DNA of 35,533 bases from Candidatus Woesearchaeota archaeon (GCA_964502865.1 CAZCXX010000002.1:1-35533); one strand, 5' to 3'. Positions 9,717 through 32,961 are shown, numbered from the stretch's first letter. The notes: a model not told the origin generated them from the sequence alone. Made by a program: numbers and translations.

Positions 9717-9906
9717 CTATAGTGGAAGACCTAAGTCCTTCCCCTAATAGCAGACGACACATCAAGAATTATCGAGGCTTCAATTCTTGACTGCGCTCAA
9801 GGACTTCGAGAATATGCTTATTCTCGACAGTGATCAAGAATTGGTAAATTCTTGACATTAGCAAATCCTTGACGGAACGGGGAGAAACTTATGTCGTCTG
9901 CTATAG
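9717..9906 (+). repeat. Hairpin-repeat family A, copy 1 (longest, doubly nested)
   Basis: CTATAGTGGAAGACCTAAGTCCTTCCCCTAATAGCAGACGACA...[internal hairpin modules]...GGGGAGAAACTTATGTCGTCTGCTATAG. The ends match the copies at 18230, 23895 and 29681. Confidence 0.9.
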
Positions 9907-15790: not shown

Positions 15791-16156
15791 ATGGAAGTTT
15801 TACTCGATAGCAATTTTATTGTTGCATGTGTAAAGAAGAATATAGATTTTATGGAGGAACTCGCAGGTTTAGGTTTCCGCGTTGTGGTTCCACGTGAAGT
15901 CGTCGAGGAATTAAAAGACTTACGATTAAATGTTTCGCACAATGATCGTGCCGCGATCGACATTGCGCTCGCTCGATTTGCATCAGAGAAATTTGAAAAG
16001 GCAAAGCTTGGCAAAAGAACAGTTGATGAGGGGCTCATTGCAAAAGGGAAGCAAGGTGCTTACATTGCAACTCTTGATGCTGCTATAAAAAGAGTTGTGC
16101 CCAATAGAGTTACCATTTCTGCTTCACAGAATGCGCTGCAGATTGAGCGACAATAA
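15791..16156 (+). CDS. PIN-domain protein, Fcf1/Utp24-like
   Basis: I prefer the internal start MEVLLDSNF at ATG 15791 (the ORF track starts at 15548 but overlaps the antisense gene). Motifs VLLDSNF, VPREVVEELKDL and YIATLD fit archaeal Fcf1-type PINs. TATA-like boxes lie at 15752-15778. Confidence 0.7.
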   Translation: MEVLLDSNFIVACVKKNIDFMEELAGLGFRVVVPREVVEELKDLRLNVSHNDRAAIDIALARFASEKFEKAKLGKRTVDEGLIAKGKQGAYIATLDAAIKRVVPNRVTISASQNALQIERQ

Positions 16157-16206
16157 GTTTTTTGTCACGAAATGATTATAAAGCTGCTTTCTTCAGTGGG
16201 AGCGGT

Positions 16207-18228
16207 ATGAAAAAGAGATTGTCATTTAATGCTCAGGGAAAGCTTATTGGTGTTGATGGGGCATGGAATGGACAGGGTGGAGAGCGCGAGGAGGAACTTG
16301 AGGCTCCTGAGCAATTGAAACGATCCGAACATTTGAGTTTTTTACAGCAGCGAGAGTTACGAGAGTCTTCGGGTGAGGAGGGAGGGTGGAGCTTAAACTG
16401 CGATGGCAAAAAGCTTGCACCTTTGCAATTTTCTAATGGGAAGACACAAGAAGATGTTGTTAACGAAGTTATAACTTTGATCGAGCAGGGGAGTAAAATC
16501 GTGTTTATTCATGGCGTATGCGGTACGGGCAAATCCGCTATTGCGCTCAATATAGCCCGTCGCTTAGGCAAGGCATCTATTGTGGTACCTGTAAAAGGTT
16601 TGCAGCATCAATATGAAAGCGATTATACCACTAAGAAATATCTTGTTAAACCAGATGGGCATCGCTTAAGTATTGCAATGATCACCGGGCGTGAAAATCA
16701 CGACTCTCTTATTAAACCGGGAGTGAGTTGCGCGGATCCGTTCCTACCAGATACTATCAAGATCGCTGAAAAGAACTTTGGTCTTCTTCGTGAGTATTAT
16801 TTAGAAAATCCACTTATTTCAAACAAGGTTGAACCTACTGCAAAACAATTGAGACGTATCTCTATTGCTCCTGCAAATCCGTATTGGAGCCCCATTGCTC
16901 CTGCAGAGTTTGAATTGCCGCTTAAGGATGCCCGTAAAAAGGTATACCGGGGATTAGCTGGTAAGAAGTTTATCTTTTACCATCGGCAAGAGGGATGCTC
17001 TTATTATGATCAGTATCAAGCCTATATTGATGCAGATGTTATAATTTTTAATGCTGCAAAATTCTTAATCGAAACGGCTCTTGATCGGCGACCTGAGACA
17101 CGGGTCGATATTATTGATGAGGCAGATGAATTTCTTGATAGTTTCTCAACACAAGAGGAGTTAAACTTGAGTCGCTTAGTAAACGCACTAGGGTTGCTTC
17201 ATCCTGAGCGCTTGGATGTACGTGATGATGTTGATGCAATCATTGAACTTATTAAACTTGAAGAGAAAAATAAGCAGGCGCTCGGCATTGATGAAGGGCA
17301 GATATTTGAAAGCAAGGAGACGAAAATTCCTCGTATTGTCTCATTGCTACTTAAGTCTCCCGAGCTTGCTGCTGAAATTGCGCTCGATGAATTGAACTAT
17401 GCAAACATGGCTCTGGATGTTGCTGCTGCGTTTGAAGATTTTATGGATGATACATATGTCACTTATCAAAAGAAGGATGCCGACTTGTTTGTTCATCTGG
17501 TAACAACTAACTTGTCGAAAAAATTCGCGGGCTTACGAGAAAAAAGCAATGCCATGGTTTTAATGTCTGGAACATTACATTCTCCAGAAGTATTACGTGA
17601 AGTTTTTGGCGTCAACGATTTTCATGTCGTAGAAGCAGAAACGTTGCAACAGGGAACAGTTGAAATTCATCGTACAGGAAAAGAGATGGACTGTCGATAC
17701 TCACAACGGACCATTAATAAAGAGTTTCGAGAGCAGTATCTGCGAGCTCTCGAGAGTACGCTCGCACGTGCACGGAAACCGGCACTTATTCACGTACAAA
17801 CGTTTGATGATTTGCCTGCGGAATATGAGATTGCGCTTTATGGTCTTTCTGGGTTGATGACGCGGGAACAGCTCCAGCTTCTGCAAAGGCAGGACAAAAC
17901 AGGGAAACAGATTGCACGGTTTAAAGCAAAAGAAATTGATCAGCTATTTACCACTAAGTGTGGACGAGGAGTTGATTTTCCCGGAGAGATGTGCAATTCT
18001 GTTGTTTACACTAAATATCCCAACCCGAACGTAAGCGGTATTTTCTGGCAAGTGCTCAAGCGAACTCATGAAAAATATTTCTGGGACTTTTATCGGGATA
18101 AGGCGCGGCGAGAGTTTTTACAACGATTCTATCGTGCAATTCGATCAAAAGAAGATCATGTTTTTGTTTTGTCGCCGGACATTCGGGTTATAGAGGCAGT
18201 GAGGGATTTGCAGGGCGTGACTAGGTAA
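16207..18228 (+). CDS. Superfamily-2 DNA helicase, XPD/Rad3/DinG-like but without an obvious 4-Cys Fe-S cluster
   Basis: Walker A GVCGTGKS, motif II IIDEADEF, MSGTL, and the C-terminal TKCGRGVDFPGE...VVYTKYP typical of the Rad3-type helicase C-domain. I prefer ATG 16207 to the TTG at 16162. Confidence 0.7.
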   Translation: MKKRLSFNAQGKLIGVDGAWNGQGGEREEELEAPEQLKRSEHLSFLQQRELRESSGEEGGWSLNCDGKKLAPLQFSNGKTQEDVVNEVITLIEQGSKIVFIHGVCGTGKSAIALNIARRLGKASIVVPVKGLQHQYESDYTTKKYLVKPDGHRLSIAMITGRENHDSLIKPGVSCADPFLPDTIKIAEKNFGLLREYYLENPLISNKVEPTAKQLRRISIAPANPYWSPIAPAEFELPLKDARKKVYRGLAGKKFIFYHRQEGCSYYDQYQAYIDADVIIFNAAKFLIETALDRRPETRVDIIDEADEFLDSFSTQEELNLSRLVNALGLLHPERLDVRDDVDAIIELIKLEEKNKQALGIDEGQIFESKETKIPRIVSLLLKSPELAAEIALDELNYANMALDVAAAFEDFMDDTYVTYQKKDADLFVHLVTTNLSKKFAGLREKSNAMVLMSGTLHSPEVLREVFGVNDFHVVEAETLQQGTVEIHRTGKEMDCRYSQRTINKEFREQYLRALESTLARARKPALIHVQTFDDLPAEYEIALYGLSGLMTREQLQLLQRQDKTGKQIARFKAKEIDQLFTTKCGRGVDFPGEMCNSVVYTKYPNPNVSGIFWQVLKRTHEKYFWDFYRDKARREFLQRFYRAIRSKEDHVFVLSPDIRVIEAVRDLQGVTR

Positions 18229-18229
18229 C

Positions 18230-18304
18230 CTATAGTGGAAGATCTAAGTCCTTCCCCTAATAGCAGACGACAAACTGGGGAGAAACTAATGTCGTCTGCT
18301 ATAT
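18230..18304 (+). repeat. Hairpin-repeat family A, copy 2 (short form)
   Basis: CTATAGTGGAAGATCTAAGTCCTTCCCCTAATAGCAGACGACA-AACTGGGGAGAAACTAA-TGTCGTCTGCTATA. It starts 2 nt after the helicase stop. Confidence 0.9.
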
Positions 18305-18348
18305 TCAAGGGGCGCAGTGAATCGATACTGAGAAAGGCTTTTCTCTAA

Positions 18349-18413
18349 TAAAGAATCCCAGTCGCAGCAAGCTGCGGAGTATGGACTCAGTTTGAGCAAT
18401 CGAGTAAAGAATA
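18349..18413 (+). repeat. Repeat family D copy
   Basis: TAAAGAATCCCAGTCGCAGCAAGCTGCGGAGTATGGACTCAGTTTGAGCAATCGAGTAAAGAAT. It shares segments, in permuted order, with 13967..14026, and shares the core plus GAGTAT(T)GGACTCA with 13454..13481. Confidence 0.7.
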
Positions 18414-18460
18414 CGTTTAAATAAGCCGTTAGCGTAGGAGTTCTGCAAGGAGGTGAATAA

Positions 18461-18694
18461 ATGGTACGTGAAAAAACTGTAGCACAAACCGGTCGCGCGC
18501 TCGCTACGTTAGTAGCTATTGCAATGTGGCTTACCGGTATTATTGTAGCGTTGGCCGTTGGTTTTGGCATGACTTCCGGCGCTTTGAGCATTCCTTGGTT
18601 GCCTGATGTCATTACAATGGCAGCAGGTTGGATTGTGGTTATTTTGACGATTGTCGGTATTGTGCTTGCGATTATTGATCGCGTAACTGCATAA
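18461..18694 (+). CDS. Small membrane protein (2-3 TM helices)
   Basis: The 77-aa ORF is hydrophobic. AAGGAGGTG lies 6 nt upstream of the ATG. Confidence 0.55.
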   Translation: MVREKTVAQTGRALATLVAIAMWLTGIIVALAVGFGMTSGALSIPWLPDVITMAAGWIVVILTIVGIVLAIIDRVTA

Positions 18695-18775
18695 AACTGC
18701 TTGACTTTTACTTTTTTGTTTTTTATTATGCGACACCCGGGTAAAGTTTAAAAAGGTGATGTGGTTCAAGAAGGT

Positions 18776-19183
18776 ATGGTGGCACAGTCATTACGAAAGG
18801 TAGGTGAGCGATCTAGCGATGTTGCGTATGCACTCTTCCGTATTCTTGTTGGGCTCATGTTCTTCCAACATGGTGCCCAGAAGCTATTTGGCTGGTTCGG
18901 TGGGAAGGCGGTAACTGAACTCGCGAGCTTAATGGGTGCTGCAGGAGTTATTGAGTTCTTTGGGGGACTTTTGATTGCTCTTGGATTGTTCACTCGCTCA
19001 ACTGCCCTCGTTGCAGGCGTTGAAATGTTATATGCGTTCATTGTTGTACATAGCATTGGAAACAAGACCGTTATACCAATCGTAAATAATGGCGAACTTG
19101 CATTGCTTTATTTTGCAACTTTCTTGGTGCTTATGACGTACGGTCCAGGCATTTGGAGTTTGAGTCGTGCTCTGAAGAAGTAA
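18776..19183 (+). CDS. DoxX-family membrane protein
   Basis: FRILVGLMFFQHGAQKLFGWFGG is the DoxX signature, and four TM helices are predicted. I prefer ATG 18776 to the GTG at 18761. Confidence 0.7.
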   Translation: MVAQSLRKVGERSSDVAYALFRILVGLMFFQHGAQKLFGWFGGKAVTELASLMGAAGVIEFFGGLLIALGLFTRSTALVAGVEMLYAFIVVHSIGNKTVIPIVNNGELALLYFATFLVLMTYGPGIWSLSRALKK

Positions 19184-19236
19184 GGGATTGCCTTCTTTTC
19201 CATAATCTTTTTAATACATCATATGCTTGTACATCA

Positions 19237-20280
19237 ATGAAGCGAGTGGTGATTATTGGTGGCGGATTTGCTGGTACACTCATTGCAAAAAAATTACAAT
19301 CTCATTTTGCGGTTACACTTATCGACAGTAAAAACTATTTCGAGTTTACTCCAGGGATTTTAAGAACTATTGTTGAACCAGCACATTGGAAACATATACG
19401 CGTGCTTCATCGGCAGTATTTGAAAAGAACTAAACTTGTCCTTGGCATTGTTTCCAGCGTGGCAGAACATGATGTGCGCATTGGAAAACATCACTTGCCT
19501 TTTGATTACTTAGTTATTTGCTCTGGGTCAAGCTATAACTCGCCTATCAAAGAGCAACATGTCGTGCTGCCAGTGCGTGCGAGACATTTAATCGATGCTC
19601 ATCGAAGGCTCGAGAAGGCAGCGCGAGTGCTCATTATTGGCGGAGGGCTCGTCGGCGTTGAGCTTGCCGCAGAGATCATTACGCACTATCCCAATAAGGC
19701 GGTAAGCATTGTCCACCCATACCAATTTTTGATTGAGCGTAACCATTTGAAATCTAGAATATATGCTGCAGCCTTCTTAAAAAAGCGAGGAGTGGATATT
19801 ATTTATTGTGATAGAGTGAAGAGGAATGAGCATGGTGCATTTGTGACTGAACAAGGGAGAACATTACATGCAGATATTACATTTTTGTGTACCGGCATTA
19901 CTCCTAATTTTTCGTTTCTCGATGGTACTTTTAAACATGTTTTGAATGAACGAAATCAAGTTCGAATTAACCAGCATTTACAAGTTAAGGATTTTGAGCA
20001 TATTTTTGCTGCAGGAGATATTACTGACAGTGTTGTGGAAAAAACTGCACAAAATGCGGAAAAACAAGCAGCTGTTGTCGCGGCTAATATTCGCGCACTT
20101 GAGCGCGGAGAGGTATTGCGTTCGTATGCTCCACGCCGAACCTCACAAGTTATCAGCTTAGGAAAATGGGACGGTATTTTTGAAGTGGGGGAACATATCA
20201 TTACCGGTCTAGTTCCTGCGTATATGAAATCAGCGATTGAAAGACGAGAGATGTGGCGGCGCGGGTGCTTGTTTAGATAA
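19237..20280 (+). CDS. FAD-dependent pyridine nucleotide-disulfide oxidoreductase (NDH-2 / AIF-like)
   Basis: I prefer the start MKRVVIIGGGFAGT at ATG 19237. A second dinucleotide fold is VLIIGGGLVGVELAAE, and the C-terminal region has FAAGDIT. Confidence 0.8.
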   Translation: MKRVVIIGGGFAGTLIAKKLQSHFAVTLIDSKNYFEFTPGILRTIVEPAHWKHIRVLHRQYLKRTKLVLGIVSSVAEHDVRIGKHHLPFDYLVICSGSSYNSPIKEQHVVLPVRARHLIDAHRRLEKAARVLIIGGGLVGVELAAEIITHYPNKAVSIVHPYQFLIERNHLKSRIYAAAFLKKRGVDIIYCDRVKRNEHGAFVTEQGRTLHADITFLCTGITPNFSFLDGTFKHVLNERNQVRINQHLQVKDFEHIFAAGDITDSVVEKTAQNAEKQAAVVAANIRALERGEVLRSYAPRRTSQVISLGKWDGIFEVGEHIITGLVPAYMKSAIERREMWRRGCLFR

Positions 20281-21646
20281 AATTCTCGCTGGTGAGTACT
20301 TGTTCAAGCTCTTGTATTGCATTATCGGGCTTTTGATTGCTCTCGAGCGTATACTCCCAAAGCCGGTTTGCCTGCCCATCAAAAACCGCGATTCTATTCC
20401 AATCAAGCTCAATTCTTCCCCCATTTCTGAGCCCCTTGTTTTTGTAGGTGGCTGCTTTTCCTTTTACTGCAGCGATTGTTTGTGGAGGCGCATGCATTGC
20501 ATTTATGATTTCTTCTTCAGTAATCCAACGCTCGATCCAACCGTCATTATCCTGAATTTGATAAAATAAGCCCCCACTATCTATGCGGTGGTAATCCAGC
20601 CCAATACTTTGTATGAGTGCGCTTCCCGTATCTAGACCCGTATCTGTCATGTACTGTTCTATGAGGTATTTTTTTGTCACCCAGTCAAGTCTTCCTGCTA
20701 GTGCATACGGATCTTCTTTAATTCGTGCAAGGAGTTTGACCGTTTCTTCAAAACAATCGATAACGCTGTCTCTGAACGCATTTTGACCATAGAGTTCGCC
20801 CTTTATTGCCGAACAATACTTCTTGTAAACATCTGTCAGCCTTCTGTACTCTACAGGAGTTCCTTCCAGTGACCATTCAGCTTGCTGTTCTGAAAGAGAA
20901 TACATATCACTTACAGCTTTCTGCGTATCGTAAGGTATATGGGGAAGCAAATTGGCTTCAGCAAGATCAAGCATACATCTCCATAACTCTGTTTTTAAGA
21001 CAACCGCACTTTCACACATATTTCCATCGTTGCTAATATGATGAAACCGTTTCCAGGGTGCAAAATCTCCTTGATCGCGAAGATTAAGAAGTGCACGCCG
21101 TTGTGTTGTACAGTTTGAGAACGGTTCGAGAATGAACGGTCGTCGCTGGAGCAAATCATAACGTCCATTTAGATAATGGTATCCTGCGCCGGTAATCACT
21201 TTTTCAATAACTGACCAGAGTAAGAGGGGTGCTCGCGCTTCTTCTGAAGCAACAATCGTGGTACTGAAATTGAGATGACTTCCAAATGAAACTTTTGCAT
21301 CCCTATTTGTTTTGTATACCATCGGATTAAGATTTTTATCAATGAGCGTGAAGATTTGTTGTTCCATCGCTTTTTCATATCTTAGTAGGTCGAGGGTATT
21401 ATCAACAATTGGCGTGCATCCTTCAAGATGTTTTAAATCAATGTATGTTTCCCCTCCATTTTCGAAATAATGACGGCCCTTAATGAGATCTTGCAGATAT
21501 TCATCTCGCTTTTCGTCATCTTCTATTGCATTTAAGATTACTGCAAATTCGTGCTCAATGCCGCACAATCTATTTTCTAGTACACTTTCTTTTCTTTCAT
21601 GCTTTTGCTGTCTTTGTTTTAGAAGTTCTATTATTCTTTCTTTCAT
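20273..21646 (-). CDS. PafA/Dop-family carboxylate-amine ligase homolog (Pup-ligase-like)
   Basis: By-eye motif matches to M. tuberculosis PafA along the whole length: GIEHEFAV, NGGETYIDLKHLEG, YKTNRDAKVSFGSHLNF, ITGAGY, LLQRRPFI, LNLRDQGDFAPWKRFHHISNDGNMCE, LDWVTKKYL, LDYHRI, HAPPQTIAA, ELDWNRI. At about 457 aa it is PafA-sized and has no Dop-type loop. I prefer ATG 21644-21646 to the TTG at 21652. Confidence 0.8.
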   Translation of the reverse strand: MKERIIELLKQRQQKHERKESVLENRLCGIEHEFAVILNAIEDDEKRDEYLQDLIKGRHYFENGGETYIDLKHLEGCTPIVDNTLDLLRYEKAMEQQIFTLIDKNLNPMVYKTNRDAKVSFGSHLNFSTTIVASEEARAPLLLWSVIEKVITGAGYHYLNGRYDLLQRRPFILEPFSNCTTQRRALLNLRDQGDFAPWKRFHHISNDGNMCESAVVLKTELWRCMLDLAEANLLPHIPYDTQKAVSDMYSLSEQQAEWSLEGTPVEYRRLTDVYKKYCSAIKGELYGQNAFRDSVIDCFEETVKLLARIKEDPYALAGRLDWVTKKYLIEQYMTDTGLDTGSALIQSIGLDYHRIDSGGLFYQIQDNDGWIERWITEEEIINAMHAPPQTIAAVKGKAATYKNKGLRNGGRIELDWNRIAVFDGQANRLWEYTLESNQKPDNAIQELEQVLTSENFI

Positions 21647-21673
21647 GCTCAACAGGAAAGGGAAAAGGGGTTT

Positions 21674-22504
21674 TTATGGGTTGCTGTTTTTCTTGCTGTT
21701 CACTACTGAAGACTTTTGTATTTTTACGCTAGAAGCTCTCGTATCCTTTTTTTCAGAAGCGATATGCACATTAATCGTATGTTCCGGAATGGAAAACTTA
21801 CTTGCATGGGGCGAAAGGGGAACATTATCATGGATCAACTCTTCATACACTCTTCCGGTTAGTATCTCAATTCCGTTGTCTCGAGTCAAGAGTGTTACCG
21901 GCTGAGTATAGGCACGCACGAACGCGGTTGCAACCAAGTGCCGATCTGTTTCAAGTTTTTCTCCTAGATTTACCCTACCCCCTCTTTCTTCTTTTGCTCG
22001 ACGCTTATCAAGCATGAGGTCAAATGATTTTTCACGTGCAATATCCATAAAATCATTATATTTTGCTTGTTCGTCGTATGTACCGGGCGTTTTACTACAC
22101 GCCTGGAGTTTTTTAATGAACCGAAAGAGCGCAACATTATATGAGGTGATGCAATCAAGCACGCTTCGGTAATATTGTATTTCATCATCAGGGTATTCTT
22201 GGATATACTCGCGCAATTCGCTTGTAAGGTGTAACTGTCTATCATTGAGCGTTTTTAAGTGATATCTTATTTCAGTACACACTTGAGGAATGGTAATGAC
22301 TTCCTGTGCATCTATGAGTCGTGAGAGCTCTTGCAGGCGTTCAAAACGACGCGTGATGAGTTCCAGGTCAAGCGTTTCAAAACATGCCAATCCCTCATAC
22401 AGGAGCGTCGCGAATTGCGTATTTTCGTGAGGGGTAATTACTGAAGTGTCTATAAGTATGACGTCTCCATTCACTTTTTCTTCGAGATCGGCTTTCAGTC
22501 CCAT
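21674..22504 (-). CDS. PIN-like nuclease domain split by an approximately 100-aa helical insertion, hypothetical
   Basis: VILIDTSVI (first Asp), QVCTEIRYHL (Glu), TDRHLVATAF and LLTRDNGI (third and fourth Asp) follow the PIN pattern. The C-terminal tail is Lys/Ser-rich. The gene lies 27 nt upstream of the PafA-like gene on the same strand. Confidence 0.5.
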   Translation of the reverse strand: MGLKADLEEKVNGDVILIDTSVITPHENTQFATLLYEGLACFETLDLELITRRFERLQELSRLIDAQEVITIPQVCTEIRYHLKTLNDRQLHLTSELREYIQEYPDDEIQYYRSVLDCITSYNVALFRFIKKLQACSKTPGTYDEQAKYNDFMDIAREKSFDLMLDKRRAKEERGGRVNLGEKLETDRHLVATAFVRAYTQPVTLLTRDNGIEILTGRVYEELIHDNVPLSPHASKFSIPEHTINVHIASEKKDTRASSVKIQKSSVVNSKKNSNP

Positions 22505-22561
22505 CAATAGGAAACAAACAATCTCTTTTTAAATCTTTTTATATTAGTAACTACCTAGTGG

Positions 22562-23836
22562 TTACTGCTTGTTGATTTTATTCTTACCGAACATATAGGG
22601 CACAAGAACAGGGGGAATCAGGACAGAGCCATCTTTCTGCTGGAAGTTCTCGAGAATGGCGACCATTGCGCGGGAGGTTGCAATTGCCGTATTGTTCAGA
22701 GTATGGGGAGTGTAGCGTGTTTTGCCATCGACGCGAATTTTTAGGAGTTTTGCTTGCGCTTCGGTAAGATTCGAACACGAGCCGACTTCGAAATATTCTT
22801 CTTTCCGTGGTGACCACGCTTCGATATCGACTTGGATATGCTTGAGGTCGCTCAAGTTGCCAGAACAAATTGCAAGAACGCGCAACGGCAAACCGAGCGA
22901 GGTAAATATCTCAATTGTAATTTCTTTCATGCATTCGAAGAATTTCATGGAGTCTTCTGGTTTACAGATGACAATCATCTCAATCTTGTTAAATTGATGA
23001 GTTCGGAAGAGCCCCTTTTCATCAATTCCGTGGCTGCCAACTTCCTTGCGGAAACACATTGAGTAGCTTGTCTGCTTGATTGGAAGCTGCTTTTCTGGAA
23101 GGATTGTGTCAATGTAGCGGCCAATGAGGGCATGCTCACTTGTTCCAATAAGATAGAGATTTTCGTCTTGGATTTTATAAATTTGGTTTTTCTGGTCGTG
23201 CAGATCCGTTACGTTTTTGATTATCTTGTCTTGTACCATAAGTGGTGTTTCTACATAGAGAAACCCTTTTTTAACCATGGTCTCAATTGCAAACCTCAGG
23301 ATTGCTTGATTGAGAAGTGCAAGGTCTCCCTGCATGTAATAAAACCCATTGCCAGACGTTTGCGCTGATGCGTTAAAATCAAGCATCCCGAGAGACTCGC
23401 CAATTTCGACGTGACTTTTAATGGGAAAGTTGAACTTTGGCTTTTTCCCATATGTCTTAATCTCTACATTTTGAGAAGCGTCTTTTCCGATTGGAACCGA
23501 GGCGTGCATGACGTTCGGAAGGTTAACTAGCATTGCCTGTACGACGTCTTCAAGCGCTTGCGCTTTTCTTTCAACGCCATCAATCTGATCAGGGATTTTC
23601 TGTGCTTTTTTTAAGACTGCGTCAGCATTCTTTCCTGCTTTTTTGAGCAAACCCACTTCTTTAGAGAGTTTGTTTCGTTCTGCGCGGAGAGTATCTGCTT
23701 CGCCTTTTAATTTTCGCCATTCTGCATCTTTCTTGAGCGCTTCTTCTACAATCTTAAGCTTATCGTTCTGGAACTTTTTTTTAACTGTTTCACGAATAAG
23801 GTCAGGGTTTTCACGGAGGAACTTTATGTCGATCAT
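22562..23836 (-). CDS. serS: Serine--tRNA ligase
   Basis: The 424-aa protein has an N-terminal coiled-coil arm (MIDIKFLRENPDLIRE...) and a class II core (FRKE..GSHG..GLFRTHQF, GSCSN). Confidence 0.95.
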   Translation of the reverse strand: MIDIKFLRENPDLIRETVKKKFQNDKLKIVEEALKKDAEWRKLKGEADTLRAERNKLSKEVGLLKKAGKNADAVLKKAQKIPDQIDGVERKAQALEDVVQAMLVNLPNVMHASVPIGKDASQNVEIKTYGKKPKFNFPIKSHVEIGESLGMLDFNASAQTSGNGFYYMQGDLALLNQAILRFAIETMVKKGFLYVETPLMVQDKIIKNVTDLHDQKNQIYKIQDENLYLIGTSEHALIGRYIDTILPEKQLPIKQTSYSMCFRKEVGSHGIDEKGLFRTHQFNKIEMIVICKPEDSMKFFECMKEITIEIFTSLGLPLRVLAICSGNLSDLKHIQVDIEAWSPRKEEYFEVGSCSNLTEAQAKLLKIRVDGKTRYTPHTLNNTAIATSRAMVAILENFQQKDGSVLIPPVLVPYMFGKNKINKQ

Positions 23837-23856
23837 GATTAGGGAAGAGCGGAGGC

Positions 23857-23866
23857 ATATTTAAAA
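23857..23866 (-). promoter_or_regulatory. TATA-like box for serS
   Basis: The minus strand reads CTTTTAAATA about 21 nt upstream of the serS ATG, and no SD sequence is present. Confidence 0.5.
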
Positions 23867-23894
23867 GTTGCTTCTAAGGGATACCGATTACAAA

Positions 23895-23968
23895 TATAGT
23901 GGAAGACCTAAGTCCTTCCCCTAATAGCATACGACAAAACGAGGAAAAACTAATGTCGTATGCTATAG
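23895..23968 (+). repeat. Hairpin-repeat family A, copy 3 (short form, compensated stem)
   Basis: TATAGTGGAAGACCTAAGTCCTTCCCCTAATAGCATACGACA-AAACGAGGAAAAACTAA-TGTCGTATGCTATAG. It overlaps the last codons and stop of the antiporter gene. Confidence 0.9.
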
Positions 23969-25674
23969 GTGGAATTATCTTTCCCTTCTTTAAGTTGTTG
24001 ACGATGTTGCCTGCCGAGCTTTCGGTAGATATCTTTATTAGTATGATACTGACGAATCAAATGCGAAGCATATTGGCCGCCCAAGTGATGCGGAATTAGG
24101 ACATAATCGACTCCTGCTTCATAAAGGTTGAGCGCGGTACGCGGTTGTTCTGCCGTTGCGATGAATATCGCTTTTGAGCCCAACTTTTTAAGCCGCTCAT
24201 TAATCGTACGGTTTGATGCTTCATCAGGGATTGTGGAGATGATCATCTTTGCTTTATCTATCGGGATTTCCGTAAGGAAATCCTGGTCTCCTCCATCACC
24301 ATAAATGCAGTCTATCTTCTCATTAGCCAGTGCAAGGATGGTTTTTGGATTATAATCGACAACTACAAATGAGAGTTTCATCTTTTTGAGCATATCGATT
24401 ATCTTGTATCCAATACGGTGATATCCGAACAAGACGATGTCATAGTTTTTTTCATGCTGCTGTTTGCTTAGATGACTCTTTCCTTCAAAAATTGTTAGTA
24501 GGTGTGATATCTTATTGAAAATTGAGTGGGAGTAGTAAATGCTGTAACTGCTCACACCGATTGTAATAACGGCAATCAAAATTACAAGGCTCATAATTTC
24601 TTGGCTGAGATGGCCGAGCGTAAATCCGAGCAGCGCGATAATAAGAGAGAACTCGCTAATTTGCGCGAGACTTGATCCTGCTAAGAAGTTAGTTCTTTTT
24701 TTGTACCCAAAAAATCTAAGCGTAGCCATGACGATTAGCGGCTTGCCAATTATTACAAAAAGAGAAAATATTACCGCGCTCTTTATGAGAGAGTAATCAA
24801 TGGTACCTGCAAGTTGACTTCCAAAGAAGACAAAGAAAAGAACAACGAAGAAATCTCGTAAGGGTTTCATCTTCCCGCCCAGTTCCAGTGTGTATTTGCT
24901 GGAAGCGAGCGACATACCTGCAATGAGTGCACCAATCTCGAGCGAAAATCCGAGGACGTCGAAGAGCGTGGCAAGGGAGAGCGCCCAGGCGATACTAAAG
25001 AGGAAGAGCGCTTCTTGATTTCGTGCGAGGTAGTCCAGTACGCGGGGAAGAATGACTCCTGAAAGCATGAATACTCCTGCACTGATGCCTAGGGCGATCA
25101 CTATTTTTCCTCCGAGCCAGAATAGATTGCCTTGATGCTCGACGAGCGGGATTGCCATGAGCGCAACTGCCGCAACAAAATCTTCAACAATAAGAATTCC
25201 GAGGGCAATACGACCATGGAGTGTATCGATTTCTTTTTTATCAGATAAAATTTTAACAACAACAACTGTTGAGGAAAACGCCAATGCTGCACCGATATAG
25301 AGGATTTCTTTATCTCCAAATCCTAAGCCGATAGCTATGAGGGCACCGATGCCGCCAGTGATTGTGATTCCAGCAAGCCCTGCGAATGTTGCAACACCGC
25401 CGATTTCTTTGAGGACGCGGAAGTCAAGCGAGAGACCGACGATGAAAAGAAGAAATGCAACGCCAATGTGTGCGAAAGTTTGAATGAGTTCTGATGTCGC
25501 AACATTATCGCCAACGAACTCTGTCAATGCGCCACCGAGCATAGCAGGACTAATAAGAATCCCTGCTACGAGATACGCGATCAAAGGTGGCTGTCGTATC
25601 ATTCGGGCAATTACCGCCAGGATTGCAGCAATACATATAATTACGCTAAGATACAATAACACCTCTTGCACCAT
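23950..25674 (-). CDS. Kef-type cation:proton antiporter (CPA2) with C-terminal RCK/TrkA-N domain
   Basis: The 574-aa protein has about 12 TM helices followed by a Rossmann-like DIVLFGYHRIGYKI...VVVD segment. TATTTAAAAG lies about 25 nt upstream. Confidence 0.85.
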   Translation of the reverse strand: MVQEVLLYLSVIICIAAILAVIARMIRQPPLIAYLVAGILISPAMLGGALTEFVGDNVATSELIQTFAHIGVAFLLFIVGLSLDFRVLKEIGGVATFAGLAGITITGGIGALIAIGLGFGDKEILYIGAALAFSSTVVVVKILSDKKEIDTLHGRIALGILIVEDFVAAVALMAIPLVEHQGNLFWLGGKIVIALGISAGVFMLSGVILPRVLDYLARNQEALFLFSIAWALSLATLFDVLGFSLEIGALIAGMSLASSKYTLELGGKMKPLRDFFVVLFFVFFGSQLAGTIDYSLIKSAVIFSLFVIIGKPLIVMATLRFFGYKKRTNFLAGSSLAQISEFSLIIALLGFTLGHLSQEIMSLVILIAVITIGVSSYSIYYSHSIFNKISHLLTIFEGKSHLSKQQHEKNYDIVLFGYHRIGYKIIDMLKKMKLSFVVVDYNPKTILALANEKIDCIYGDGGDQDFLTEIPIDKAKMIISTIPDEASNRTINERLKKLGSKAIFIATAEQPRTALNLYEAGVDYVLIPHHLGGQYASHLIRQYHTNKDIYRKLGRQHRQQLKEGKDNSTYSIRH

Positions 25675-29020: not shown

Positions 29021-29710
29021 ATGGAGCGAGGCAGTGTGAAAAAAGGGCTTTTTATTGTCTTTGAAGGCATTGACGGCAGTGGAAAAACATCGCAGATTGA
29101 ACGTCTTGCACGATACATTCGCGCTCAGGATAAATATCGAGATGTTCTTTTGACACGGGAGCCTACTTGGCGTGCAACTGAATTACTTGAACAACTTCAA
29201 GGTAATGCAGACGCTTTTTCGAACGGTGAGCGCATGGCGTATCAATTTGTTTGGGATCGGAAAGCTCATACCGACGCACAGATTAAACCTGCCTTAGAGC
29301 AACGTGCGTTTGTTCTGTGTGATCGGTATGCGATGTCTACTTGTGCGTATCAAGCTGCGCAAGGTGTACTGCTTGATACTTTACTCCGCTACCATGAAGA
29401 GGCTCAAACACTTACTCCCCATATTACATTTTTTGTCGATGTCCCTCGTGAGGTAGCTGAAGCACGGATGATCAAACGAGGAGCTGCTCCTGAAAAGTTT
29501 GAGAAAAATGCAACGTTTACTGATTTACTTATTAAGCATTATCGTTTACTTGCAGAAAAAAGTCTTACAGATGAACGGTTACGCAGAGTTATCGGTCCTG
29601 TGGTGAGCATTGATGGAATGCCCTCTCTGGATCAAGTTGGTGAGCAAATTCAAGTTGCTTATGGTCAAGCGATGCGTGCTTATAGTGGAAGACCTAAGTC
29701 CTTCCCCTAA
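29021..29710 (+). CDS. tmk: Thymidylate kinase
   Basis: The P-loop FIVFEGIDGSGKTSQ and DRY motif (CDRYAMST) are present. The start is MERGS at 29021, 2 nt after the thyA stop. The last 9 codons and the stop lie inside repeat A4. Confidence 0.9.
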   Translation: MERGSVKKGLFIVFEGIDGSGKTSQIERLARYIRAQDKYRDVLLTREPTWRATELLEQLQGNADAFSNGERMAYQFVWDRKAHTDAQIKPALEQRAFVLCDRYAMSTCAYQAAQGVLLDTLLRYHEEAQTLTPHITFFVDVPREVAEARMIKRGAAPEKFEKNATFTDLLIKHYRLLAEKSLTDERLRRVIGPVVSIDGMPSLDQVGEQIQVAYGQAMRAYSGRPKSFP

Positions 29711-29816
29711 TAGCAGATGACACATCAAGAATTATTGAGGCTTCAATTCTTGACTGCGCTCAAGGATTAGCAAATCCTTGACGGAACGGGGAGAAACTTA
29801 TGTCGTCTGCTATAGT
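29681..29816 (+). repeat. Hairpin-repeat family A, copy 4 (intermediate form)
   Basis: TATAGTGGAAGACCTAAGTCCTTCCCCTAATAGCAGATGACA-[TCAAGAATT..AATTCTTGA; TCAAGGA..TCCTTGA]-GGGGAGAAACTTATGTCGTCTGCTATAG. Confidence 0.9.
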
Positions 29817-29953: not shown

Positions 29954-30232
29954 TTATTCATTGTTTGAACTGTGCTTTTCTGCATTCTGGAACCACTCAG
30001 TTTTTTGATTTTGCGGAAGTTGTTTTATTGCATATTCACACTTACAAGCATCAGATTTGCTTGTGCAGCTTTTTGAAGCGAGGAGCTGCTTAAATCCTTT
30101 GCGCGCGACATACTTGCTTCCTTTGCCGAGCGCATGTGTTTTCATTCTCTTATCGAGATTGTTGGTCACTCCGGTATAAAATGATCCGTCATGACATTCT
30201 AGGAGATAGACGTACCATTGCTTTTTATCCAT
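29954..30232 (-). CDS. GIY-YIG nuclease-domain protein (UPF0213/YhbQ-like)
   Basis: The 92-aa protein contains WYVYLLECHDGSFYTGVTNNLDKRMKTH, a GIY-YIG core. TTTTAAATA lies about 22 nt upstream. Confidence 0.8.
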   Translation of the reverse strand: MDKKQWYVYLLECHDGSFYTGVTNNLDKRMKTHALGKGSKYVARKGFKQLLASKSCTSKSDACKCEYAIKQLPQNQKTEWFQNAEKHSSNNE

Positions 30233-32470: not shown

Positions 32471-32734
32471 ATGGAAGAAAAGCAAATTACGATAAACAAA
32501 GTAGATAACTTAGGAGTTACTATTGTCGTTAGAGAAGAGAATATGGACGACCATAAAGTCTTCATTGTTAATAATGAGGAGTTGGGGGTGGCAGATTTCG
32601 GAGACACGTTAGATGAAGCAATACATAACTTCAGGAAATCGCTGCAACTTTATTTAGAGACGTATCCTGAGAAAAAAAGTATTCTTATAGAAAAACAAGA
32701 TTCTCCTCTTCTTGTTTCAAGGATTTTTCTTTAA
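32471..32734 (+). CDS. hicB: HicB-like antitoxin (UPF0150 fold only, no DNA-binding domain)
   Basis: The 87-aa protein has GVADFGDTLDEAIHNFRKSLQLYLE, which matches the HicB N-domain signature (G.T.eEA..n..eal..yle). Confidence 0.65.
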   Translation: MEEKQITINKVDNLGVTIVVREENMDDHKVFIVNNEELGVADFGDTLDEAIHNFRKSLQLYLETYPEKKSILIEKQDSPLLVSRIFL

Positions 32735-32961
32735 AAAAATTCATTCTCAAACGCTTCTTTGTCAATTCCAAGTTGTCTTAAAACATTTCCATAAATCCAA
32801 ACAGCGATCTCTTCACGATGCGTTGGAACATTCGTTGACTTGTTATTCTTTGGATTTTCAAGAATAACACCATGAGAGGTATTCCTCTTTTCGATGCAAC
32901 CATATTTTTTGAGTGCTTGTAAGAAATTCCGCACTTTTAAATTTCTCCGATTCATGCTCAC
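32731..32961 (-). CDS. hicA: HicA-like mRNA interferase toxin
   Basis: The 76-aa protein has LKVRNFLQALKKYGC....TSHGVILENP....TNVPTHREEIAVWIYGNVLRQLGIDKEAF, fitting the HicA pattern (SH...vP.H..ei....l..il.qlgi). Confidence 0.7.
   Translation of the reverse strand: MSMNRRNLKVRNFLQALKKYGCIEKRNTSHGVILENPKNNKSTNVPTHREEIAVWIYGNVLRQLGIDKEAFENEFF

Follow-up and report, generated by a model that had tools for sequence, protein, structure and literature searches.

A divergent Pup-ligase family protein encoded beside serS in DPANN archaea

Pupylation is regarded as a bacterial invention that belongs chiefly to the Actinobacteria, with sporadic transfers, and archaea are not known to use any protein tags other than those of SAMP/ubiquitin-like systems. 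We analysed a stretch of DNA of 35,533 nucleotides (nt) from a Candidatus Woesearchaeota archaeon (GCA_964502865.1, CAZCXX010000002.1:1-35533; hereafter the window), which carries a gene of the Pup_ligase family, the family of PafA and Dop (gene A), and directly upstream of it on the same strand a gene for a probably PIN-like protein (gene B). An earlier reading made from the sequence alone (the sequence-only reading) had singled out this pair, and the coordinates, the strand and the 27-nt gap that it gave for the two genes were all reproduced, with product lengths in amino acids (aa) and open reading frames (ORFs) as follows. Loci and proteins from other contigs are cited by our L and P numbers.

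20273..21646, minus strand: gene A, Pup_ligase family, 457 aa; ATG at 21646, stop at 20273-20275, ORF 20273..21652
21674..22504, minus strand: gene B, DPANN-type family, 276 aa; ATG at 22504, stop at 21674-21676, ORF 21674..22507

The closest described systems are those of PafA and Dop. Gene A belongs to the same Pfam family as the actinobacterial PafA (Protein Data Bank (PDB) structures 4b0t and 4bjr) and resembles it in length and two-domain layout; the two share the GhExE motif, the catalytic Asp, the Mg ligands, the phosphate-binding Arg residues and an Arg engaged in a salt bridge to the Pup C-terminus, and both lack the Dop loop. Gene A differs from PafA in that it has no residue inserted after the catalytic Asp, carries a Pro for a PafA Ala, reads H-L-N, occurs in an archaeal host and has no pup, mpa, prcBA or dop gene nearby. 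With Dop (4b0r, 5lrt) it shares the D-x-x-H spacing, the S/C-T-P motif after the catalytic strand and T217, which binds the terminal residue of Pup, whereas the Dop loop of approximately 37 residues is missing, E66 stands in place of R90 and the alpha-loop is of mixed type. UBact-type systems of Gram-negative phyla and the single-copy homologues of the planctomycete type are remote members of this family from outside the Actinobacteria, with 23–28% identity. A tag gene adjoins the ligase in their loci (ORFs with the ending RTGE/RTGQ or GGE), and UBact loci also have two ORFs of 257–280 aa between the ligase genes; neither feature is present in the window or in its Pacearchaeota relatives.

Family membership and active site of gene A

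Gene A matched Pfam PF03136 (Pup_ligase) with 162.6 bits (E 2e-47, cut-off 25) over model positions 69–439 of 441, far beyond chance, and its residues 20–418 matched the PDB sequences of Dop and PafA with E 1e-20 to 2e-19, Dop being the top match (E 1.2e-20). The protein is full length, including the Trp of the C-terminal domain (W416). The sequence-only reading had recognised the family from PafA motifs; the profile and PDB matches confirmed a genuine full-length member, and the PDB alignment together with an active-site map showed the listed motifs, including H-L-N for H-E-N, to be real. Against the NCBIfam equivalogues, gene A scored 111 bits for PafA (TIGR03686, cut-off 551.3) and 104.1 bits for Dop (TIGR03688, cut-off 492.3), far under both cut-offs, and it is therefore neither PafA nor Dop. 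Judged by sequence, it is a true but atypical and highly divergent PafA/Dop relative of the Pup_ligase family, with its glutamine-synthetase fold. One homologue's database entry already carries the NCBI name ‘PafA2 family protein’. A literature search on archaeal, candidate phyla radiation (CPR) or DPANN Pup ligases found nothing relevant, which agrees with the earlier statement that no PafA/Dop system was known to have been characterised in archaea.

Gene A was mapped onto the numbering of Acidothermus Dop, with residue roles taken from PMC8599861, in which the Mg2+ ligands of Dop are E8, E10, Y92, E99, H155 and H241. These correspond to E31, E33, Y68, E75, H124 and H202 of gene A, the catalytic D94 to D70, and R205, R227 and R239 to R168, R190 and R200. 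Two contacts to Pup's C-terminal residue are retained (Dop T217 as T180 and PafA R201 as R184), and the nucleotide-binding motif GhExE reads G29-I-E31-H-E33. The Mg ligands, the catalytic Asp and the Pup-contact residues are all kept in seven orthologues of the same subtype (type 1) at 38–48% identity, which argues for purifying selection. Gene A apparently encodes a catalytically competent enzyme.

The positions that distinguish PafA from Dop were taken from table 1 of PMC7947786. Gene A lacks the Dop loop, with 30 residues from E33 to N63 against 77 in Acidothermus Dop. Its D70-L-K-H73 is without the PafA-type residue insertion after the catalytic Asp and has Dop-like spacing, its C77-T78-P79 carries the Dop-type Pro, against A-T-A after HPEY in PafA, and its alpha-loop is of mixed PafA/Dop type.

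Relatives, gene order and Pup-type clusters

The closest homologues of gene A were found in metagenome-assembled genomes (MAGs) of Pacearchaeota and Nanoarchaeota, at 38–48% identity. A scan of GTDB genomes with the single gene A protein returned nothing, and a scan with the type-1 alignment returned matches. The type-1 clade had 100% bootstrap support in a neighbour-joining (NJ) tree. Within it, the Glu of the HEN triad is mostly Q, L or R (lost in six of the seven type-1 proteins), and the equivalent of Dop R90 is V, R, E or K. HEN is retained in a type 2-like set comprising P0009, P0011, the L011 ligase and the second paralogue of L002. After serS, the window has type 1 only and L011, at the same position, type 2 only.

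The Pacearchaeota MAG contig VGKP01000002.1 (L002:8001-11038) carries tandem, very divergent paralogues after serS, a type 1 without HEN and a type 2 with HEN. This tandem recalls the PafA/Dop pair, while other genomes have just one type there.

The surroundings of genes A and B in the window are as follows.

19153..20280, plus strand: NDH-2-like pyridine-nucleotide-disulphide oxidoreductase; Pyr_redox_2, E 6e-35
21647..21673, minus strand: spacer between genes B and A, 27 nt, from the sequence
22505..22561, minus strand: spacer between serS and gene B, 57 nt, from the sequence
22562..23836, minus strand: serS, seryl-tRNA synthetase; TIGR00414, 423.6 bits

The NDH-2-like gene is convergent with gene A, the 3′ ends overlapping by 8 nt, and its real start is probably downstream of 19153. 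Beyond it lie DoxX, a 77-aa ORF whose product is probably hydrophobic and membrane-spanning, as its sequence reads, and a DinG-like helicase. The flanks named by the sequence-only reading, serS on one side and DoxX/NDH-2 on the other, are thus correct. In the serS–B spacer, a hairpin stands directly 3′ of the serS stop, and the TATA-like TTTAAAAA, approximately 26 nt upstream of the gene B ATG, may serve as a promoter. An A-rich stretch, CATAAAAA, overlaps the end of gene B approximately 29 nt upstream of the gene A ATG; co-transcription of gene A with gene B and a separate leaderless promoter may both be compatible with this arrangement. A scan for sigma-70 promoters gave background level only, the sigma-70 model not being applicable to archaea.

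The contig is archaeal, as had been claimed. Two archaeal marker models matched above their cut-offs (pheT_arch, 410 bits against 283; uS10_euk_arch, 125 bits against 96) and pyrH_arch slightly below (150 bits against 158), and the window also carries an archaeal-type pheS (PRK04172) and a weak match to RNase P component 3. Where the sequence-only reading had named intron-containing tRNAs, ARAGORN listed four ordinary tRNAs. Archaeal marker genes flank gene A on both sides, and the GC content is flat across genes A and B (0.40–0.44), that of gene A equalling that of its surroundings.

The block of Na/H exchanger, serS, (PIN-like gene), ligase, NDH-2, DoxX, 77-aa ORF and DinG-like helicase recurs in independent Pacearchaeota assemblies with 41–48% protein identity, and its synteny is also seen in two named Pacearchaeota MAGs. 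The serS–ligase–NDH-2 junctions occur again in assemblies of different samples from ENA, JGI, NCBI and Logan. Since independent assemblies contain the whole block, both a chimera and a recent transfer are ruled out. Gene A is vertically inherited within a Pacearchaeota (DPANN) clade, and the proposal that it was horizontally acquired, taken in the recent sense, fails on the local GC match and on this conserved block.

At all DPANN loci examined (L001, L002, L005, L007, L009, L011 and L014), the gene that directly precedes the ligase, or gene B plus the ligase, is serS, with gaps of 24–62 nt or with gene B in between. This includes L007, whose ligase shows an identity of only 31% (tblastn) and whose wider neighbourhood is different. 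The NDH-2-like gene 3′ of the ligase is also found in L005, L009 and L011.

Orphan Pup_ligase homologues also occur in the CPR, as a single gene in Saccharibacteria (L021:5983-7371) and a tandem pair in Patescibacteria (L026:5132-8199). No Pup-like ORF was found at these two loci, and no proteasome subunit among the neighbouring ORFs tested, a situation that parallels the one in DPANN.

Outside the ligases of Pacearchaeota and Nanoarchaeota, the closest relative of gene A with a complete system is P0010 (30% identity), which belongs to a Pup-type cluster.

L037:2442-7965 (GCA_964502785.1, CAZCXW010000026.1): AAA ATPase, Dop-like gene, 83-aa ORF and 654-aa ligase P0010

The AAA ATPase of L037 has a coiled-coil N-terminus and its best NCBIfam match is pup_AAA/Mpa (256 bits); the Dop-like gene scored 416 bits against TIGR03688; and the 83-aa ORF (‘...ILDEIDGILQDQPVRKRYRQPGGQ’) has an ILDEIDGIL helix and ends in RYRQPGGQ. 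The contig carries a Dph6_archaeal equivalogue (diphthine–ammonia ligase) above cut-off and a DRG-type GTPase, and is probably archaeal; if it is, L037 would be an archaeal pupylation locus. By BLASTP, gene A scored 147 bits against P0010, in the ligase position, and 98.6 bits against the L037 paralogue in the Dop position, and all DPANN ligases likewise scored higher against the former.

Two metagenomic loci of GC 0.31 have related contexts. L038:3265-8407 contains two proteasome subunits, a proteasomal AAA ATPase and a ligase, and L039 contains an AAA ATPase, a ligase and then a Pup-like 56-aa ORF at 2556-2726 (‘...DDLIDDLEDVLNETEERRKVPRKGGE’), which carries DDLIDDLEDVLNE and ends in KGGE.

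Tags were sought by scanning small ORFs for the endings GG[QE] or [STAG]G[QE] and by tblastn with known tags, and neither approach yielded one in the window or at the Pacearchaeota loci. As a positive control, the scan found tags in L019, L022, L024, L031, L037 and L039. In L019 and L022, UBact-like ORFs (...RYRQRTGE/Q) lie directly 3′ of the first of two ligase genes and are followed by two ORFs of 257–280 aa, which stand where the actinobacterial locus has its proteasome subunit genes. Three candidates at the DPANN loci were rejected: the serS C-terminus as a substrate (it ends in Q in the window, an ending not conserved in orthologues), a 65-aa ORF after the tandem ligases of L002 (no Pup-like end) and the conserved 74–77-aa ORF (it reads as hydrophobic and probably membrane-spanning).

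Directly upstream of every planctomycete-type single-copy ligase, in Planctomycetes and related bacteria, we observed an ORF of approximately 52–57 aa ending in VP[YH]GGE.

L024:172-345: ORF ending in VP[YH]GGE
L031:4821-4979: ORF ending in VP[YH]GGE
L025, L027-L030, L032 and L033: ORFs ending in VP[YH]GGE at matching positions

From its sequence, this ORF looks like a Pup-like tag for the planctomycete-type homologue, which, to our knowledge, the literature treats only as an outgroup.

Gene B and the weighing of readings

Gene B alone had no match in Pfam, NCBIfam or PADLOC and none in the PDB by phmmer. A full HMMER search gathered a family of 108 cluster representatives of 230–320 aa. In an alignment of 50 sequences, every member has D19 and E78, and conservation of D187 and D209 is at least 90%; the four residues stand in the PIN-typical contexts LLDTS, IpEVxxE, TDxxhhATA and hhTRDxG. 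Gene B thus appears to follow the four-acidic-residue pattern of PIN domains (D after strand 1; E; D-x-x-h-h-A-x-A; T-x-D). An AF2 model built from the 50 sequences (pLDDT 88.4, pTM 0.84) had a strand and helix order compatible with PIN and a small beta/alpha core split by four long helices at residues ~73–173 (~100 aa); an earlier model from four sequences (pLDDT 47) was not used for searching.

Structure and profile searches with gene B leaned towards HARP, the RNA-free RNase P, at non-significant scores. HARPs made up four of the top seven Foldseek matches (E 0.16–1.8, non-significant; the best with E 0.16 and probability 0.6; TM 0.26–0.40) and four of the top five PDB sequences matched by the B-family profile (best E 0.027 with three collinear motif matches, also non-significant). 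Foldseek found nothing significant in the PDB or BFVD. The only recurrent Pfam match among B homologues was a weak one to PIN_4 (in 4 of the 50 sequences, lowest E 0.027), an hhalign comparison between the B family and the local PIN_9 proteins came out negative, and the HARP family PIN_5 (PF08745) gave no match to gene B at E up to 10. Of the earlier PIN-like claim, the acidic quartet and the helical insert stood, and a significant match to a PIN family was not found. A PIN-like nuclease of HARP-like architecture, with a helical insert, is the probable identity of gene B. Gene B shares with HARP the PIN-type acidic quartet and a PIN core broken by a helical insert; unlike in HARP, the insert has four helices and roughly double the length, and PIN_5 does not match. 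The likeness is one of architecture only. HARP has been reported absent from DPANN (PMC6380272).

The 108-cluster PIN/HARP-like family is not known to have been described before. One distant homologue of gene B lies directly 3′ of a CDC48-type AAA ATPase (L034:2671-5858) and another directly 5′ of a DUF87/HerA-like ATPase (L015:6001-8216), which hints that the family may often pair with ATPases.

On balance, and with some reserve, we favour the reading that gene A is a pupylation-type enzyme whose substrate or tag is encoded outside the window, inherited vertically and linked to serS, with gene B as a lineage-specific neighbour. By homology, gene A would bind ATP and Mg2+ and turn the gamma-carboxylate (or gamma-amide) of a Glu/Gln at a terminus into an activated acyl-phosphate, which would be joined to an amine (that of a lysine in a pupylation-like reaction), or else it would carry out the reverse hydrolysis. 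The likeliest substrate would be a disordered tag of the Pup/UBact kind, or else the C-terminus of another protein, encoded beyond the window. For gene A, the reaction, the kind of substrate and the ligase rather than hydrolase direction are what we infer. Gene B would be a PIN-like, HARP-type nuclease placed in the serS–ligase spacer of one sub-lineage only.

Several observations weigh against this reading. As the sequence-only reading had noted, no Pup, Mpa or proteasome gene is nearby: the 35.5-kb window contains neither a Pup-like ORF nor a second paralogue, and neither Mpa/PAN nor proteasome genes (its ORFs of at least 100 aa include no AAA unfoldase and no PF00227 protein), and there is likewise none within ~8 kb in seven Pacearchaeota/Nanoarchaeota loci. 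The alpha-phosphate Arg of Dop, R90, is E66 in gene A, and the Glu of H-E-N is L125; no role for this Glu was found in the literature checked. Both ligation and the reverse hydrolysis are possible, because the PafA/Dop diagnostic positions are mixed. The PafA/Dop phylogeny that had been suggested as a check succeeded for the type-1 clade and not for the deeper branching, the NJ tree resolving shallow clades only, with 2–50% support at deep nodes. The archaeal assignment of L037 consists of two marker genes only.

The sequence-only reading had also put forward a ligase-plus-nuclease module, regulatory or defence-like. The pairing does recur in some related genomes: gene B of the window and its four nearest family members (P0022, P0023 in L001, P0024 in L011 and P0025 in L014) all lie between serS and a Pup_ligase gene. 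The ligases beside them are of two very different subtypes, that of the window being type 1 and that of L011, at 25% identity, type-2-like, and the spacing is tight, the B stop abutting the ligase start in L014 against a gap of 27 nt in the window. Genes A and B might then form a functional two-gene module in which the ligase modifies or regulates the nuclease, or both act on one RNA–protein substrate, without Pup or proteasome. We consider this unlikely. The five loci share the whole block and are close relatives, and the adjacency may be inherited synteny; in L002, L005, L007 and L009 the ligase comes right after serS with no gene B between them, a B-like gene lying 3–5 kb away in L007 and L009; and the distant B homologues adjoin DUF87/HerA-like or CDC48 ATPases without a ligase. 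PADLOC-DB gave no match for either protein at E up to 0.01, and the 57 nt upstream of gene B hold no ORF for a small, VapBC-type antitoxin, the next gene being serS. The constant partner of the ligase is serS, not gene B, and for the A–B pairing lineage-specific synteny is a likelier explanation than an obligate machine of two genes. The module in its obligate form is therefore not upheld, and neither is a defence-like role: the locus is a housekeeping block with no sign of defence. On the proposed working without a proteasome, the 35 kb covered here give no verdict, and at other loci relatives of the ligase are accompanied by Pup-like tags, Mpa-like ATPases and proteasome subunits.

The link to serS could also be read in functional terms, with gene A as a housekeeping amidoligase acting on a small-molecule or tRNA-linked substrate and the HARP-like nuclease as a second tRNA-directed partner. 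Consistent with this, serS is upstream at all DPANN loci examined, even in L007 with its distant ligase and differing neighbourhood, no tag gene lies near the ligase, the best (weak) fold and sequence matches of gene B are tRNA-processing HARP enzymes, and the glutamine synthetase/glutamate–cysteine ligase (GS/GCL) superfamily that contains the Pup ligases includes small-molecule ligases (PMC7947786). We nevertheless give it little probability: the nearest relatives with interpretable context sit in Pup-type clusters, tiny genomes often conserve gene order without a functional link, and nothing direct points to tRNA-related chemistry. Improbable, too, is a broader version in which Pacearchaeota have reused the Pup-ligase fold without Pup or proteasome, serS, the (HARP-like nuclease) and the ligase amounting to an amidoligase system for a tRNA(-synthetase)-linked substrate or a Pup-unrelated tag; if true, it would be a new kind of macromolecule modification in ultra-small archaea. 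The loss of the HEN Glu in six of the seven type-1 proteins, the variable R90 equivalent (V, R, E or K), the retention of just one of the two paralogue types in different genomes and the lack of partner genes nearby would suit a remnant, decaying or non-catalytic, of a pupylation system that has been lost, kept as a pseudoenzyme or scaffold. This is very improbable, the 457-aa ORF being intact, the six Mg ligands, the catalytic Asp and four Arg residues being invariant across orthologues 38–48% identical, and the gene being kept at a fixed position in strongly reduced genomes. That bacterial DNA was joined to an archaeal contig during assembly, which the sequence-only reading had listed as a possible refutation, has a negligible probability; the sole ground for it is that Pup ligases are expected in bacteria, and it conflicts with junctions that recur in the four assembly sources and different samples, the flat GC and the archaeal markers on both sides.

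What is new here is a clade of PafA/Dop homologues that DPANN archaea inherit vertically and that, from its conserved residues, seems to be active. Together with the related contigs bearing Pup-like GGQ/GGE tags, Mpa-like ATPases and proteasome subunits, this clade suggests a wider range and history of the Pup-ligase family, and it provides concrete genes for asking whether archaea pupylate. As an orphan linked to serS, gene A would have either a tag elsewhere in the genome or a new substrate.

Other features of the window

Sequence comparison revealed a structured intergenic repeat in four copies.

9718-9906, plus strand: repeat copy
18231-18316, plus strand: repeat copy, short
23895-23980, plus strand: repeat copy, short
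29681-29815, plus strand: repeat copy

The copies share a 5′ part, TATAGTGGAAGAcCTAAGTCCTTCCCCTAATAGCAgACGACA, followed by a variable insert (~20 nt in two copies, 60–115 nt in the other two) and a 3′ end, TGTCGTCTGCTATAG, that pairs with the 5′ part in a 13-bp stem. The two short copies show a compensatory change from G-C to U-A and had folding z values of -4.6 and -5.7 relative to shuffled sequences. They bracket the block from the 77-aa gene to serS, the copy at 23895 separating the stop of the Na/H exchanger gene from the start of serS. In a shorter delimitation the two span 18231-18304 and 23895-23968. Rfam gave no match at E up to 1 in 17500-24500 of the window, the repeat included.

By eye only, we noted a candidate toxin–antitoxin pair at 32471-32961, formed by convergent, slightly overlapping HicB-like (87 aa, plus strand) and HicA-like (76 aa, minus strand) ORFs, and a 92-aa ORF at 29954-30232 (minus strand) with a GIY-YIG-like N-terminal motif, WYVYLLECHDGSFYTGVTNNLDKR, which adjoins a tRNA-Ser and a repeat copy.

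A gene for a small PIN_9 protein (15797-16156, plus strand) lies directly upstream of the DinG-like helicase (16162-18228, plus strand), which matched PADLOC typeIV_DinG with E 1.6e-34. A PIN_9 gene also stands beside the helicase in L002 and L009, and L001 has in the same place a gene that aligns with PIN_9 and is 60% identical to that of the window.

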